From: Octopus vulgaris
Taxonomy: Eukaryota
NCBI GenBank assembly: GCA_951406725.2
Contig: OX597817.1
Coordinates: forward strand, 102,052,001 to 102,116,000
Length of the DNA: 64,000 nt
Reading direction: 5' to 3'
The notes under the pieces are model-generated. The model made no database searches, was not told where the DNA came from, and saw only the letters and a program-made list of their open reading frames with translations. The first letter of the stretch is position 1. Every line of letters starts with the position of its first letter. Positions 31,063-63,502 of the stretch are shown one piece after another. Position numbers and translations under genes: made by a program.

Positions 31063-31479
31063 ATATATTAATAAAAGGAATTCCAACCTTGTCTGATTTT
31101 CACGTTTTATTTACAATCTTATAATGATATATTATAAGATAATATATTATAATAGAATAAAATAAAATAGTAGAATGTTAAATGTTCATTCTGATTGAAC
31201 TAGTACTTTCATGCATTAAATTCTGCAATCTTCGGGTTCATGTAGTAGTGGTGACAGTCATGCTTCACAATTTTTGAAGCATGACTGTCACCACTACTAC
31301 ATGAACCCGAAGATTGCAGAATTTAATGCATGAAAGTACTAGTTCAATCAGAATGAACATTTAACATTCTACTATTTTATTTTATTCTATTATAATATAT
31401 TATCTTATAATATATCATTATAAGATTGTAAATAAAACGTGAAAATCAGACAAGGTTGGAATTCCTTTTATTAATATAT
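31063..31479. repeat. Perfect palindrome, 205-bp arms with 7-nt loop
   Basis: 31063-31267 is the exact reverse complement of 31275-31479 (checked block by block). Confidence 0.97.
31302..31346 (+). ncRNA. Minimal type I hammerhead-like motif (C4 variant); mirror copy on minus strand at 31196-31240
   Basis: tgaac-CCGAAGA-ttgca(gaatttaa)tgcat-GAAAGTACTA-gttca. Confidence 0.65.
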
Positions 31480-31644
31480 ATATATATATATACCACGTTA
31501 GCAACCAGACTATCGGAGGTTGTTATATATCGCTGGTCAGAATGCGCTTCGTATCGTATAGCTTTCGAATGATACCACCCAGCTGGCTAGTCGAGCTGTC
31601 GGCCAACATTACTCCTGTTCGGAATGCTATTCCGTCGTTGGGTT

Positions 31645-31788
31645 AGCCATTTACAGCTGAGTTGACTGGAGCAACGGGAAATGAAGTGTTTTGCACAAGA
31701 ATACATCGCACAGCTCGGTCCGGGAATCCAACTCACGATCTAGCGATTGTGAGTTCAGTACCCTAACCACTAGGCCAAGCGCCTTCAC
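31645..31788 (-). mobile_element. tRNA-derived SINE head
   Basis: A-box-like tggcctagtgg and B-box-like gagttggattcc; related to 40777-41100. Confidence 0.65.
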
Positions 31789-31969
31789 ACGCGCGCGCGC
31801 CCAAACACACACATACACACACCACACACACCACACACACACACACACATACACACACACACACACGTACAGGTGAGCACATAAGTGCAAAACAAGGTGG
31901 AAAAAATAGTATTCGAATACCAAAAGTAGAGTAATATGCTTTTTATTAAAGCTGCAAAATTATCACAGA

Positions 31970-32009
31970 ACTGTTGCTCAAAGTTTCACGTCCCCGTTCC
32001 TCGGACAGT
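31970..32009 (-). ncRNA. Hammerhead-like motif (C4 variant, cleavage triplet degenerate)
   Basis: actgt-CCGAGGA-acg(ggga)cgt-GAAAC-tttga-GCA-acagt on the minus strand. Confidence 0.55.
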
Positions 32010-32034
32010 TGTGACGGAATGAATATATATATAT

Positions 32035-34145
32035 GACACCAACCATGCTCTTCGTTTGTTCAACGCTTTCTCCTTTCCTCCTGGCCCCTCTAAACTTCTC
32101 TTCACCTTTGACATCAAGAGTGTATACACGGTGATCCCTCACCAGGAGGGCCTGCGTGCACTCCAGCATTTCCTTGACCTTCAACCCAACCCCAGCCTGA
32201 CACATCCACACTACTTCGTCTGGCCAAACTTGTCCCCTCACTTAACTGCTTCTCGTTCGCGGGTGATTTTTACCAGCAGTTCGCGGGAGTGGCCATGAGA
32301 ACGAGAATTGGCTGCGTTGAGGCCCAAATATTCTCAAGTTTCACTGGTCCTTAACTATACGGTTGTTATATTGGTGATTGTATCGGTGCGACTTCACTCT
32401 CCCGCGAACATTTAGACTCTTTCCTCTCTTTTGTCAAATCTTTCCATCCTGCCCTCCACTTCTCCTGCTCTATTTCCGACACCTCAGTCCCCTTTCTCGA
32501 CATTTCGGTCAGCACTCCTCACTCCACTCTCACCACCTCCCTCCACTACAAACACACAGACTCACACTCATGCCTCAACTTTTCCTCCTCCCACCCTAAA
32601 CCCACCAAACTCTCCATCCTCTATTCTCATTTCCTCCCTCTATGCAGGCTCTGCAGTGACAACCATGATTTTGAGACTCAGTCTCAACTTATGGCTCGCC
32701 ACTTCATCCTACGTGGATATCCTCTCACCACTATACACACCGCCCTTGCCAGAGCACGTTCTGTGGACTGTGCATCTGCTCTCTCCCCCGCATCCGCCCC
32801 GCAGTCACCCGTTTCCCCTCACATACCACCCCACCACCCTACCTCTCTAACACACCATTCTCGAGCCTTCCGGCGACTCCAGTCCAACCTTTCCATTTCG
32901 CATAGCCTCCCTAACCGACTCCTCCCCTCCTTCAAACGATCCCACAACTTTCGGGACCTCCTGGTCCACAGCTTCTTCTCTAAGCCAACCTCCCAACCCG
33001 GCTCGTTCCCCTGCTCCTGCCCACGCTGCTGCACTTAACCTTACCTCTCCGATATCATCCTCCTCACAGGCACTCATCATTGACCCTATCATATCACTGA
33101 CTACTTCACCTGCACTTCTAGCAACGTCATCTACTGCATCTCCTGCTCTCTTTATACATCGGTCGAACGGGACACCGCTTTGCCGACCGGTTCGCGGAAC
33201 ACCTCCGAGACATCCGACTCGGTAACGACACCCCCGTCTCGCGCCATTTCCACTCTACCGGTCACTCTTGTCCTTGCACAGGGGCCATCCGGACTCCCGT
33301 CTTCACGGTGAGCAGGGATTAATCTTCTCTCTTCATTCCTTTGCGCCACATAGGCTCAACTCTATTCATCTAACCCTCCTCCTCTCTCCTCTCTTCCTTT
33401 CACACCTACTTCCGCCCACCCACCTCTCCTCTCTTGCCCTGGCACCTACTTCCTCTCTTCACACCTACCCACCTTCTCCCTTCCACCCTCTCCCTCCATC
33501 GTTACCCTACCCTACACATTCCAACCCTACCATCCCTATACATTACATCCCACCCCACCCCATCCATTAGACCCCACCCTTTCTTCCCCCACTTTCGCTT
33601 CCCCCATACCCCAACACCATCACACCACACCACACACCACCAAACCACGCACCACCACACCACACACCACCACACCACCACACAACACACCACTACAACA
33701 CACACCGCATCACACCACCCCGCACACAGTATCACTGACCACTTCCCAGCACCCACACCGGCGCACACACTATCACTGACTACTTCCCATACACCTACAC
33801 ATGCACACACGCACACGTCAATGTCACCAGCCCCCTTCCACACGTACATACACGCTCTCACATACGCACGCATGCGCACCTTCATTTTGGGATCATCGCT
33901 ACTTTATTACCTCCCCTTCTTCCTAGCTCTCCTGTGTGACCCCTCTGTCTGGCATTCGCCATGATAGATCGCTAGCCACCAAACCTTTTTCTGTTTTCTC
34001 TTCTTGTTTATTTCTGTGTTCCTTTCTGTCGACGAGCGTAGGCTCGAAACGTAAAAGACTTTCTCACTTCCCAGGCGTTAAACTAATTCATCTGTTTGTT
34101 GTTTTCACACCCGTCTTCCTTTATTTTTTTTTGTAAATTCTCACT
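32035..34145 (+). mobile_element. Penelope-like element, 5'-truncated (RT plus GIY-YIG plus tail), degenerate
   Basis: LLFTFDIKSVYTVIPH, GVAM, PFLDISV, RGYP and FTCTSSNVIYCISC..YIG.TG..FA.RF.EH; hammerhead-like motif at 34022-34057; (TA)n on both sides. Confidence 0.85.
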
Positions 34146-61480: not shown

Positions 61481-61564
61481 GAGTTTTCCTACGGATCCCT
61501 TTTAATATATTTATCCTTATGTGTGTGTATATATATATATATATATATATATATATATATATAT

Positions 61565-62363
61565 ACTCCTGGGTGATGAGTCCTTATTGAGTAGCGACAC
61601 TGTCCTTACCAATTCCAACCTAACATACAATAATAATAATAATAATAATAATAATAGAAATAGTATTGATATTAGCAACATTCATAGCAGCATTGGCGTT
61701 AACAATAGTAATAATGATAATAACATTAGCCGGATTATTAACAGTGGTGGTGTTAGTGGTAGTAGTAACAGCATTTCTAATAACAGTTGTATTACTGATG
61801 ATAACAATCACAGCATTCCTATAGTCAGAGAAATTGCCGACGATATTACAATTAATAATAATGATAATAAGATGAATAGTATTGTGGCCAATGCTAGCAA
61901 CAATATTTACACCTATCATAACAATAAAAACTCTGTCTTAGTATCGGAAGTTAACCCCAACAGATTAAAGTTCTTATCCAAAAATTCCAAAATTAGAAAC
62001 ACCATTTACCAGTGCAAAATTTCTTCTGGAACCGATGTCTTCTTCTACATTGGAGCAACTTTTTCTAAATTAGCTCAAAGGATCTCCAATCATTATTCAA
62101 CTTTCCGAGATAAGAGAAAACAACACAGCACGGGACTAAGTAAATTAGTTTGGCGTCTGAAGGACAGCAACACAACTTTCAAGCTGGAATGGTCCATATT
62201 GTCGGTGTCTTTTCCGTTTGATAAGGGCAGAAAACTTTGTGGCATCTGTAATTTCGAACTTTTTCATATTTTGTTCGCCAAAGTCCCTTTAATAAATACA
62301 ATCGTCGAGAGGTCCTACAGGTGCATGCACTGGCAAAAACACACCTTTCATTCATATGAATAA
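61565..62363 (+). CDS. PLE-type GIY-YIG endonuclease ORF with Asn-rich N-terminal region, no RT visible
   Basis: TIYQC...FYIGAT...RISNH..TF...LSK.VW.LK...CGIC...CMH; open frame from the (TA)n tract. Confidence 0.75.
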
Positions 62364-62944
62364 TGATTAATATAGATAACCCCTTGAATTTTAATTAATA
62401 TAACTTCTTTTTTTATATATGTCAGCCCCATAGTCATAAAAATTTTTTTTATAATTTCAAAGAACTACTACACAATCCAGTGAGGTATGTGTTGCCTTAG
62501 TCCCTCTACCTCGCCCTCCTCTTTCTCTCTCTATTTCCCTCTTTCTATAGTAAGCACAATCAAACACACAGACACAAACCTCTCACCTCACCACTGTCTG
62601 TTTTCTGACATCTACCAATCCATATACACAATCACGCATACACATACACACACACACACATTAATGCAGTTATATGCAGTCACACACACAGGCACTCATT
62701 CACAATAGAAATTAACAAAATCCACCATTCATATGACCTGCACCCTTTCACCTTCCTATTCTTATGCCTCTCTCCTCCAACTTCGTTTGAACCCTTGAAC
62801 CTTTAGAACCTTCTAGATTCTTCTACATTCAACTACTTTGACGTCACTCCTTATAAAGGAATATTTTAAAGAGACACTCATTATCACTATGGGCTCCGTG
62901 TGAGCAATCATCTATAAGTTTTTTGTGCATTTTGATGTTGACAT

Positions 62945-63049
62945 AAGTTCCTTGCTTTTCCTGATGAGAAAGCGGCATAATGTACTCCTTATTCCTTCGC
63001 AATTAGGAATATGCAGCCTTCGAAACATATGTCGAAAATAAAGGAATTT
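62945..63049 (+). ncRNA. Type I hammerhead ribozyme, canonical core
   Basis: ttttc-CTGATGA-gaaagcggcat...atgcagccttc-GAAACATAT-GTC-gaaaa; palindromic stem III ACATATGT; predicted cleavage after 63033. Confidence 0.85.
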
Positions 63050-63334
63050 TGTTAATTCGTCGTTCAGCTCCATTCTTTCATATATTTATATTTTTAAAAT
63101 AAACATACAAATTTCCACACGAAATTCGAATTATCCTTAATAAGATAATTCATTCAACTACTTATATATATATATATATATATATAATATACATTTTTAC
63201 ACATGCATGTATATAGATGTATGTGTATATATATATATATATATATAGATATATATATATACATATATGTATATATATATATGTGTGTGTATGCATGTGT
63301 GTATATATATTATGTAAATAGAGGAAATTTATCT

Positions 63335-63502
63335 ATACAATAATATGTTACATTACTCGGTAGTCAAGATAAAACTCTGAGTTTCAGATGCCGAAGTGGA
63401 AATAGCCAGATAACCGAAGAGATGGTGTTGTGGATTTCCACTTCGGCATCTGAAACTCAGAGTTTTATCTTGACTACCGAGTAATGTAACATATTATTGT
63501 AT
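63335..63502. repeat. Perfect inverted repeat, 69-bp arms with 30-bp spacer
   Basis: 63335-63403 vs 63434-63502. Confidence 0.95.
63409..63469 (+). ncRNA. Hammerhead-like motif (C4 variant)
   Basis: gataa-CCGAAGA-gatg...catc-t-GAAACTCAGA-GTT-ttatc. Confidence 0.6.

Follow-up and report, generated by a model that had tools for sequence, protein, structure and literature searches.

Head-to-head inverted repeats in Octopus vulgaris: probable 5'-truncated insertion units of Penelope-like elements

Why should five head-to-head inverted repeats stand within 33 kb of an octopus genome, and could Penelope-like elements (PLEs) have generated them? Within the window (64,000 nucleotides of Octopus vulgaris contig OX597817.1, positions 102,052,001 to 102,116,000), self-comparison of the sequence recovered the five repeats that an initial annotation had reported (L1, 31063-31479; L2, 31868-34272; L3, 48432-49024; L4, 56777-57898; L5, 63335-63502), and at every one of them an inverted, 5'-truncated copy adjoins the 5' end, with 3' ends pointing outward. 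Arms are 96-100% identical at L1, L3, L4 and L5, as against ~90% at L2. As had also been proposed, the loci are mutually unrelated: none of the 45 pairs among the ten tails showed significant similarity, the weak score of the L3-L4 pair (p 0.04) lying under the shuffle maximum. We consider it likely that these hairpins are extremely 5'-truncated insertion units of several PLE families or their non-autonomous derivatives, each combining a short 3'-end copy with an adjacent inverted 3'-end copy.

Hammerhead motifs in the hairpins

L1 and L5 are near-perfect fold-backs and are listed here together with L4:

31037-31062, minus strand: one-sided 26-nt extension of L1 before (TA)n, candidate tail (flank comparison)
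31063-31479, no strand assigned: L1 fold-back, two nearly identical 208-bp arms (99-100%), 1-3 nt centre, 3' ends outward (self-alignment)
31196-31240, minus strand: mirror copy of the L1 hammerhead (descriptor)
31302-31346, plus strand: L1 minimal type I hammerhead with U4C core, U-U first pair of stem II and palindromic stem III (descriptor score 9)
56777-57898, no strand assigned: L4, arms of 412 bp (96%) in inverted orientation around a 301-nt spacer, with hammerhead words only (self-alignment, descriptor)
57899-57972, plus strand: one-sided 74-nt extension of L4 up to (TA)15, candidate tail or host flank (flank comparison)
63311-63334, minus strand: one-sided 24-nt extension of L5, candidate tail (flank comparison)
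63335-63502, no strand assigned: L5 fold-back, identical 69-bp arms, 30-nt spacer (self-alignment)
63408-63470, plus strand: L5 hammerhead with U4C core, inversion point within the stem II loop (descriptor)

Hammerheads were sought with a minimal type I descriptor, its significance judged against 6 shuffles: 12 matches scored 7 or more as against 5.0 in the shuffles, and 6 scored 9 or more as against 0.5. The descriptor located motifs in L1 and L5 (scores 9-11), in L3 (8) and in the left arm of L2 (7); shuffles also yield matches at the last two levels. The earlier description of all five loci as ribozyme-bearing thus stands for four, L2 in one arm only, and falls for L4, in which GAAA and CTGATGA words occur in permuted order and the descriptor finds nothing. 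For this reason L4 is not assigned to the PLE insertion units and is similar to them in layout only; it probably belongs with the other hairpins. By eye, the left arm of L2 and L5 have a CCGA core in common and a like stem III.

Folded as monomers, eight hammerhead-like motifs had z-scores of -1.8 to +0.1, which are uninformative because minimal motifs need dimers. No hammerhead family appeared among the 150 of 188 Rfam matches listed at E up to 5, which were mostly microsatellite-driven miRNA models, and a search of metagenomes for the L5-type pattern returned 120 loci, none resembling the window or bearing a microsatellite. The ribozymes are likely passengers in the hairpins and would for the most part be kept silent, because transcription reading through from either side yields the antisense arm first.

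Two inversion breakpoints do fall within hammerheads, as reported, one at core position 7 (48777) and one in the stem II loop (63434); two such cases are within chance, however (P 0.35, uniform model), so that an excess of breakpoints within the ribozyme is not supported. Among other copies of the L3 family, none of 22 listed inversion breakpoints lies in the ribozyme, where coverage is thin. Breakage at the cleavage site (48805, 63464) was ruled out, both breakpoints being 28-30 nt away.

An insertion unit with a target duplication

The suggested Penelope-like origin, with its link to an inverted 5' pLTR, is supported best at L3. This locus represents a single insertion, which comprises an inverted copy (247-bp arms, 97% identity), a partial tandem and a one-sided tail and is flanked by a target duplication:

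48419-48434, plus strand: left target-site duplication, 16 bp, its ends overlapping the element by microhomology (flank comparison)
48432-48678, minus strand: inverted copy, beginning at hammerhead core position 7 and including the tail (alignment)
48679-49033, plus strand: 355-nt unit (alignment, family contigs)
48770-48808, plus strand: hammerhead, U3-A8 variant (descriptor score 8)
48980-49024, plus strand: 45-nt tail, present in two copies within the locus (alignment)
49034-49331, plus strand: incomplete tandem copy, lacking the tail and with mutations in the hammerhead stems (alignment)
49330-49345, plus strand: right target-site duplication (flank comparison)

The third copy (49034-49331) and the target duplication had been missed by the initial annotation. 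In its unit, L3 agrees with non-LTR retrozymes (head-to-tail unit within 150-450 bp, type I hammerhead, no ORF). Consecutive units both carrying complete hammerheads are not present at L3; the motif of the third copy is changed in stems II and III and was missed by the descriptor. A MITE or DNA transposon was considered and rejected: the ends are asymmetric, the sole duplication found is 16 bp, and L3 terminates in a direct partial tandem.

PLE targets show a variable duplication or (TA)n, and we found the 16 bp at L3 and TA, CA or TG runs at the other four loci, a non-simple target duplication being present at one of the five. That four loci adjoin microsatellites had been noted initially; ~1% would be expected per end, and L3 adjoins none. 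Three of four non-inverted hammerhead tails likewise end at TA runs, and the adjacency therefore reflects a known target preference. A high local density had been claimed as well, yet the loci are not significantly clustered in these 33 kb (P 0.20), and their distribution tracks microsatellite density (60 runs right of 31000 versus 10 left). Since the extensions before TA-rich runs at L1, L4 and L5 each occur in single copy, they are candidate tails; that of L1 is possibly host sequence, being partly TG-like, and L2 has none.

[quoted passage not shown] On the proposed route, a PLE reverse transcriptase-endonuclease would cut both strands of AT-rich DNA, each DNA 3' end would prime reverse transcription of the RNA's 3' module, and a start at one or other of two nearby sites would leave a one-sided tail. 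Both cDNAs would stop early, their 5' ends would be joined with little or no microhomology, and a target duplication would be concealed wherever the target is (TA)n. Of the dual priming at microsatellite breaks proposed earlier, the use of both DNA ends as primers can fairly be inferred; microsatellite breaks are unnecessary, because the staggered duplication of L3 lies away from microsatellites and non-inverted tails, too, mostly end at TA runs. Neither reverse transcriptase nor endonuclease sequence was found attached to L1, L3, L4 or L5, nor a parent element for the hairpin arms within the 64-kb window.

Alternative routes to the inversion

L2 is of composite make-up, with an unrelated, putative Neptune-like element lodged in the centre of an older repeat pair that this later insertion presumably split:

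31868-32022, minus strand: left arm, its degenerate hammerhead spanning 31969-32010 (score 7), (CA)n outside and short (TA)n inside (alignment, descriptor)
32035-34144, plus strand: Neptune-like PLE, 5'-truncated and broken (reverse transcriptase, cysteine linker, GIY-YIG), inside the central TA run (translation, similarity)
34022-34057, plus strand: the nested element's own hammerhead-like motif (descriptor)
34171-34272, plus strand: right arm, with a ~50-nt deletion removing most of the hammerhead and (TG)n outside (arm alignment)

Comparison showed that the paired arms are distinct from the terminal repeat of the nested element. The translation of this element contains CX2-5CxxC linker cysteines and GIY-YIG-like motifs and is 37-40% identical to proteins P0001 and P0002, which match RVT_1 and GIY-YIG below Pfam cut-offs (P0002 had no match among solved structures); a PLE reverse transcriptase, C-terminal GIY-YIG and this linker would together place the element with Neptune. 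PLE coding fragments in the window lie at 310-441 and 32026-33268, and a GIY-YIG-like frame at 61506-62363 had no relatives found and no meaningful Pfam match.

At this locus, a possible if less favoured explanation is that a single abundant short family inserted twice, independently and in opposite orientations, into one compound microsatellite. The arms are less alike than at the other four loci and differ by the ~50-nt deletion, as two separate events would leave them; however, they start within ~5 nt of the same position in the repeat and end at the identical place, and greater age explains their divergence equally well.

We consider improbable an inversion made at the DNA level, in which an old single element beside a self-pairing TA or CA/TG microsatellite is duplicated in inverted orientation by a template switch during replication or repair, without a second priming of reverse transcription. 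This is most plausible at L2, with its mirrored outer (CA)n/(TG)n and TA centre, and at L4, whose arms contain at their ends ~95 nt of degenerate TA-rich sequence, a degenerate microsatellite. The window also holds a 126-bp inverted repeat (96%) without hammerhead at 27933-28477, adjoining a duplicated empty site, with rearranged neighbours up to 28611, and other local-inversion routes therefore act in it. Against such fold-back at the hairpins, mirrored sequence always ends at the microsatellite and never extends into unique flank, the target duplication of L3 encloses the whole unit, and a mirrored microsatellite free of any insert exists at 58094-58166, so that the flanks of L2 could be pre-existing target.

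That the hairpins are copies of master elements already inverted, MITE-like or retrozyme-like and amplified whole, rather than new inversions made at each insertion, is highly improbable. We compared 4 of 24 sequencing runs, all of them consisting of contigs, with 48376-49400 for copies of the L3 family, the flanks of the locus being uncovered. One junction, the reverse of the unit's last 20 nt leading to 48916-48918, recurs in runs X1, X2 and X3 (loose-end records: 21 in X1, 30 in X2), and some junctions of the family thus appear inherited and not made at insertion. Similarly, the junction between the second and third copies of L3 is family sequence (X10 record 15, bridged with 32 and 46 letters), which makes the L3 unit a head-to-tail repeat. 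However, inversions make up 11 of the 15 joints listed (36 in all) at scattered positions, those other than the recurrent one each being seen in one contig per run, and the junction of L3 itself (48777 to 48679) is absent from the 15 listed. Loose ends of the contigs carry stems II and III that by eye are altered yet still pair (11 records in X3, 1 in X10), in support of the L3 hammerhead.

Finally, it is hardly credible that L1 and L5 arose as artefacts of assembly or of fold-back reads, as their near-identical arms might suggest, since sequence outside these arms is unmirrored, each has its one-sided extension, and the arms of L3 and L4 differ by 3-4%.

Double-stranded RNA potential and related elements

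Whichever route produced them, the hairpins would form long dsRNA if transcribed. The initial annotation had suggested a large dsRNA source in a lineage known for extensive A-to-I editing, and the octopus lineage itself is supported. At the sequence level they account for 118 of 188 near-perfect dsRNA-capable tiles in the window, and four of them alone for 18 per 1000 tiles, in a window chosen for them and by an ungapped version of the criterion of Porath et al. (2017, PMC5625713). That study reports for Octopus bimaculoides hyper-editing and a dsRNA potential that is unusually high, at 4.4 per 1000 loci, with no repeat class assigned, and, in lizard, heavily edited Penelope; if the density seen here held genome-wide, it could bear on that unassigned potential. 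We regard it as doubtful that fold-back PLE stubs would be the main source of near-perfect dsRNA potential and hyper-editing in octopus, in the manner of the palindromic Harbinger of the frog, with some inversion junctions inherited in amplified subfamilies. Mismatches in the L3-family contigs comprised A>G at 10 and T>C at 11 places in the presumed RNA run, versus 8-12 and 8-10 in three others, and family variation masks any editing. Among freely readable main texts we found no publication linking octopus PLE hairpins to editing; a word search found 'Penelope' absent from PMC9068888 and PMC9989829, and 'hairpin', 'ribozyme' and 'editing' absent from PMC13282606.

Like the palindromic Harbinger repeats of Xenopus (PMC5625713), the octopus hairpins are self-complementary and could form tight dsRNA without a second insertion; octopus is absent from the repeat-class analysis of hyper-editing substrates in that paper. 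The U3-A8 variant and palindromic stem III (PMC4209133), as well as U4C and U10.1-U11.1 (PMC3088659, U4C there from a viroid), are described hammerhead kinds. With the minimal type I hammerheads of metazoan PLEs, for which dual motifs 100-700 bp apart on opposite strands are described (Cervera and De la Pena 2014, PMC4209133), the present motifs share a short stem I, the palindromic stem III and the U3-A8 variant, whereas the U4C core, found in three of the four motifs of these loci and in one at 6221, was not seen in the consulted sections of that paper.

The layout itself is already published, and the window adds octopus examples only; as short stubs with two ends and a tail, these are handy records of how PLE reverse transcription is primed. 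Insertion units of EN+ PLEs show a partial tandem, an adjacent inverted 5'-truncated copy, a 30-40 bp tail and (TA)n targets (Craig et al. 2021, PMC8557442; Arkhipova et al. 2013, PMC3846280), and L3 matches in layout the Pen2a of A. vaga (PMC3846280) and the legend to Fig. 2 of PMC8557442, whose PLE consensus files may contain these families. The octopus loci have in common with such units 3'-end copies inverted head to head, a one-sided tail that is clear at L3 and a candidate at L1, L4 and L5, a target duplication of variable form, TA targets and a hammerhead in the repeat, but differ from them in having no ORF inside L1, L3, L4 and L5, candidate tails of 24-74 nt and, at L4, no recognisable hammerhead. 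Compared with non-LTR retrozymes, as described by Cervera and De la Pena (2020, PMC7229834) and by Li et al. (2026, preprint 10.64898/2026.07.22.740005), L3 is alike in its 355-nt head-to-tail unit, single type I hammerhead, lack of an ORF and long target duplication, and unlike in that the motif is intact in only one direct unit and that an inverted copy is attached.

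Inverted repeats and their hammerhead motifs

The five inverted repeats proposed in the initial annotation, and their mutual unrelatedness, both stood: repeat finding and self-BLAST recovered all of them (L1, 31063-31479; L2, 31868-34272; L3, 48432-49331; L4, 56777-57898; L5, 63335-63502), and no significant sequence is common to them. Alignment of the arms (the two inverted copies of each hairpin) gave 208 bp at L1, with differences confined to the innermost bases, 412 bp at 96% identity at L4, and 69 identical bp at L5. L2 arms are ~90% alike across their common part, the right arm lacking ~50 nt. 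L1, L4 and L5 each lie between TA-rich runs and extend on one side by 26, 74 and 24 nt, respectively; these extensions remain only candidate tails because a second copy is absent from the window. L2 is composite, in the order (CA)n, left arm, short TA run, broken Penelope-like element (PLE), TA run, right arm, (TG)n. The nested PLE is 5'-truncated and has a tail that matches 14155-14306 without matching the L2 arms; its retained motifs are those of RT, a cysteine linker and GIY-YIG, and it is 37-40% identical to P0001/P0002, comparison proteins with sub-threshold Pfam matches. L3 extends beyond its initially annotated limits, with a third, partial tandem copy and a target duplication:

48432-48678, inverted copy
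48679-49033, unit of 355 nt
49034-49331, partial tandem copy
48419 and 49330, 16-bp target duplication

Its left end bears a 45-nt tail and its right end none. The arms span 247 bp, with 7 mismatches in 203 columns, and the three copies differ pairwise by 7, 10 and 12 mismatches over those columns, which fits a template of slightly diverged tandem units.

A relaxed type I hammerhead descriptor, with chance levels from six shuffles, returned 12 matches at score ≥7 (5.0 expected) and 6 at ≥9 (0.5 expected). Both L1 arms score 9, L5 11, L3 8 and the L2 left arm 7, the last two within reach of chance. The L3 motif gains support from its family: by-eye inspection of loose ends of family contigs shows stems II and III preserved, with letters changed yet pairing, and the family letter at cleavage position 48805 is C. 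Hammerhead-like words had been ascribed to every repeat; the descriptor identifies motifs at L1, L3, L5 and the L2 left arm, but L4 failed it, having just the two words in permuted order. Copies start upstream of the stem I edge by ~4 nt (L5 forward copy), 7 and 12 (L2 arms), 30 (L1) and 91 (L3). Minimal hammerheads require a same-strand partner, and in read-through transcription the antisense arm would come first, so the hairpin ribozymes are probably inactive in place.

Hammerhead-type tails also occur beyond the inverted repeats (6221, 34022, 62956, and a decayed one near 14185), and a U4C core change, which may be either a conserved octopus variant or decay, is common to four hammerhead-like motifs of different tails (31302, 32010, 63408, 6221). 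The tail at 6165-6374, with its U4C core, lies directly behind a LINE-like frame (4685-6084, presumably Tx1-like), ends at (TA)29, and is weakly similar to Neptune-like tails at 14185 and 34022. At 61570-63162, an asparagine-rich frame, for which a search for relatives gave none, runs into a GIY-YIG-like stretch, followed by the window's only fully canonical hammerhead (62956-63038) and a TA run; the region is presumably Hydra-like, and a similar fragment begins at 63560. A further PLE GIY-YIG fragment (310-441) is 48% identical to P0001 over 44 aa, and a LINE-like frame (51368-52075) shares 73% identity, across 61% of the frame, with an Octopus bimaculoides protein, the sole named entry among 5 matches, so an octopus origin of the window is probable. 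Minus-strand descriptor matches at 47786-47851 (score 10) and 17517-17570 (score 9), whose stem III is non-palindromic, may be chance.

Breakpoints and microsatellites

As first noted, the inverted copies of L3 and L5 start within the hammerhead, 28 and 30 nt ahead of the cleavage sites. Enrichment there did not emerge: with units this short, at least two of four such breakpoints would arise by chance with a probability of 0.35. When four contig sets were aligned to L3, the 15 joints listed of 36 included 11 inversions (9 clearly head-to-head, 2 without clear polarity); inversion thus recurs across the family. Among these listed joints, 0 of 22 inversion breakpoints fell within the hammerhead (48770-48808; closest 48766 and 48820), a weak test since coverage of this region is much thinner than that of the 3' part. 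A single junction (unit 49004-49006 to 48916-48918; 48451 to 48917) recurs in three contig sets (X1, X2, X3) under two organism labels, with the final 20 nt of the unit, reversed, joined to its last 110 nt. This recurrence points to inheritance within a subfamily, possibly a short one with terminal inverted repeats built in.

Four of the five loci do lie within 5 nt of a TA, CA or TG run on at least one side, as had been described, against a background of ~1% per end. However, 3 of 4 non-inverted hammerhead tails also adjoin such runs and L3 does not (nearest runs 1628 and 73 nt off), so adjacency reflects target preference of the tails and is uninformative on inversion, to which it had been tied. 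PMC8557442 reports such a preference for Neptune, Naiad and Hydra PLEs.

Potential for double-stranded RNA

Four hairpins have folding energies of -122 to -769 kcal/mol. Of 6395 tiles, 188 are dsRNA-capable under the requirement that 39 of 40 bases pair within 2 kb: 118 in L1, L3, L4 and L5, none in L2, 59 in mirror microsatellites and plain TA runs, 8 in a hammerhead-free inverted repeat and 3 elsewhere. One mirror microsatellite, (CA)n(TA)n(TG)n at 58094-58166, is free of any insert. The hammerhead-free repeat (126 bp, 96%; region 27933-28611) belongs to a dispersed, presumably SINE-like repeat and adjoins a second copy (28475-28611) of the empty target site of an LTR retrotransposon (23362-27609); the region looks like a local templated rearrangement. 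This criterion follows the measure used by Porath et al. (PMC5625713), but without gaps. Those authors report 0.44% genome-wide; hairpin tiles make up 1.8% of this window, which was selected because of its hairpins, and the two analyses differ in method and assembly. The sole lead left is what share of octopus dsRNA and editing such stubs may supply; that they are its main source seems unlikely.

Mechanism and known systems

The purified PLE protein described in PMC11167929, a predicted dimer, favours AT-rich DNA; it can cleave and extend each of the two strands and reverse transcribes from two internal sites bounding the tail, its ribozyme being dispensable for insertion in vitro. Each end of a staggered cut would prime a short cDNA from the element's 3' module, and the two would then be joined head to head; the treatment of the inverted copy in PMC8557442 leaves its origin without settled explanation.

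The hairpins are real and tidy, yet mostly ordinary. Annotation of Octopus vulgaris includes PLE families, a few of them active in recent times (PMC13282606). The stubs are likely PLE remnants by their layout, assigned here to no named family. One contig (X10 record 15) bridges the L3 unit junction, making the unit a head-to-tail family sequence; this resembles non-LTR retrozymes, but only one direct L3 unit has an intact motif. The L1, L2, L3 and L5 cores carry variants described for known hammerheads: U3-A8 and a palindromic stem III in PMC4209133, which also notes hammerhead pairs on opposite strands 100-700 bp apart, and U4C and a U-U first pair of stem II in PMC3088659. The same hairpin layout has been published for A. 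vaga Pen2a (PMC3846280) and appears in Fig. 2 of PMC8557442.
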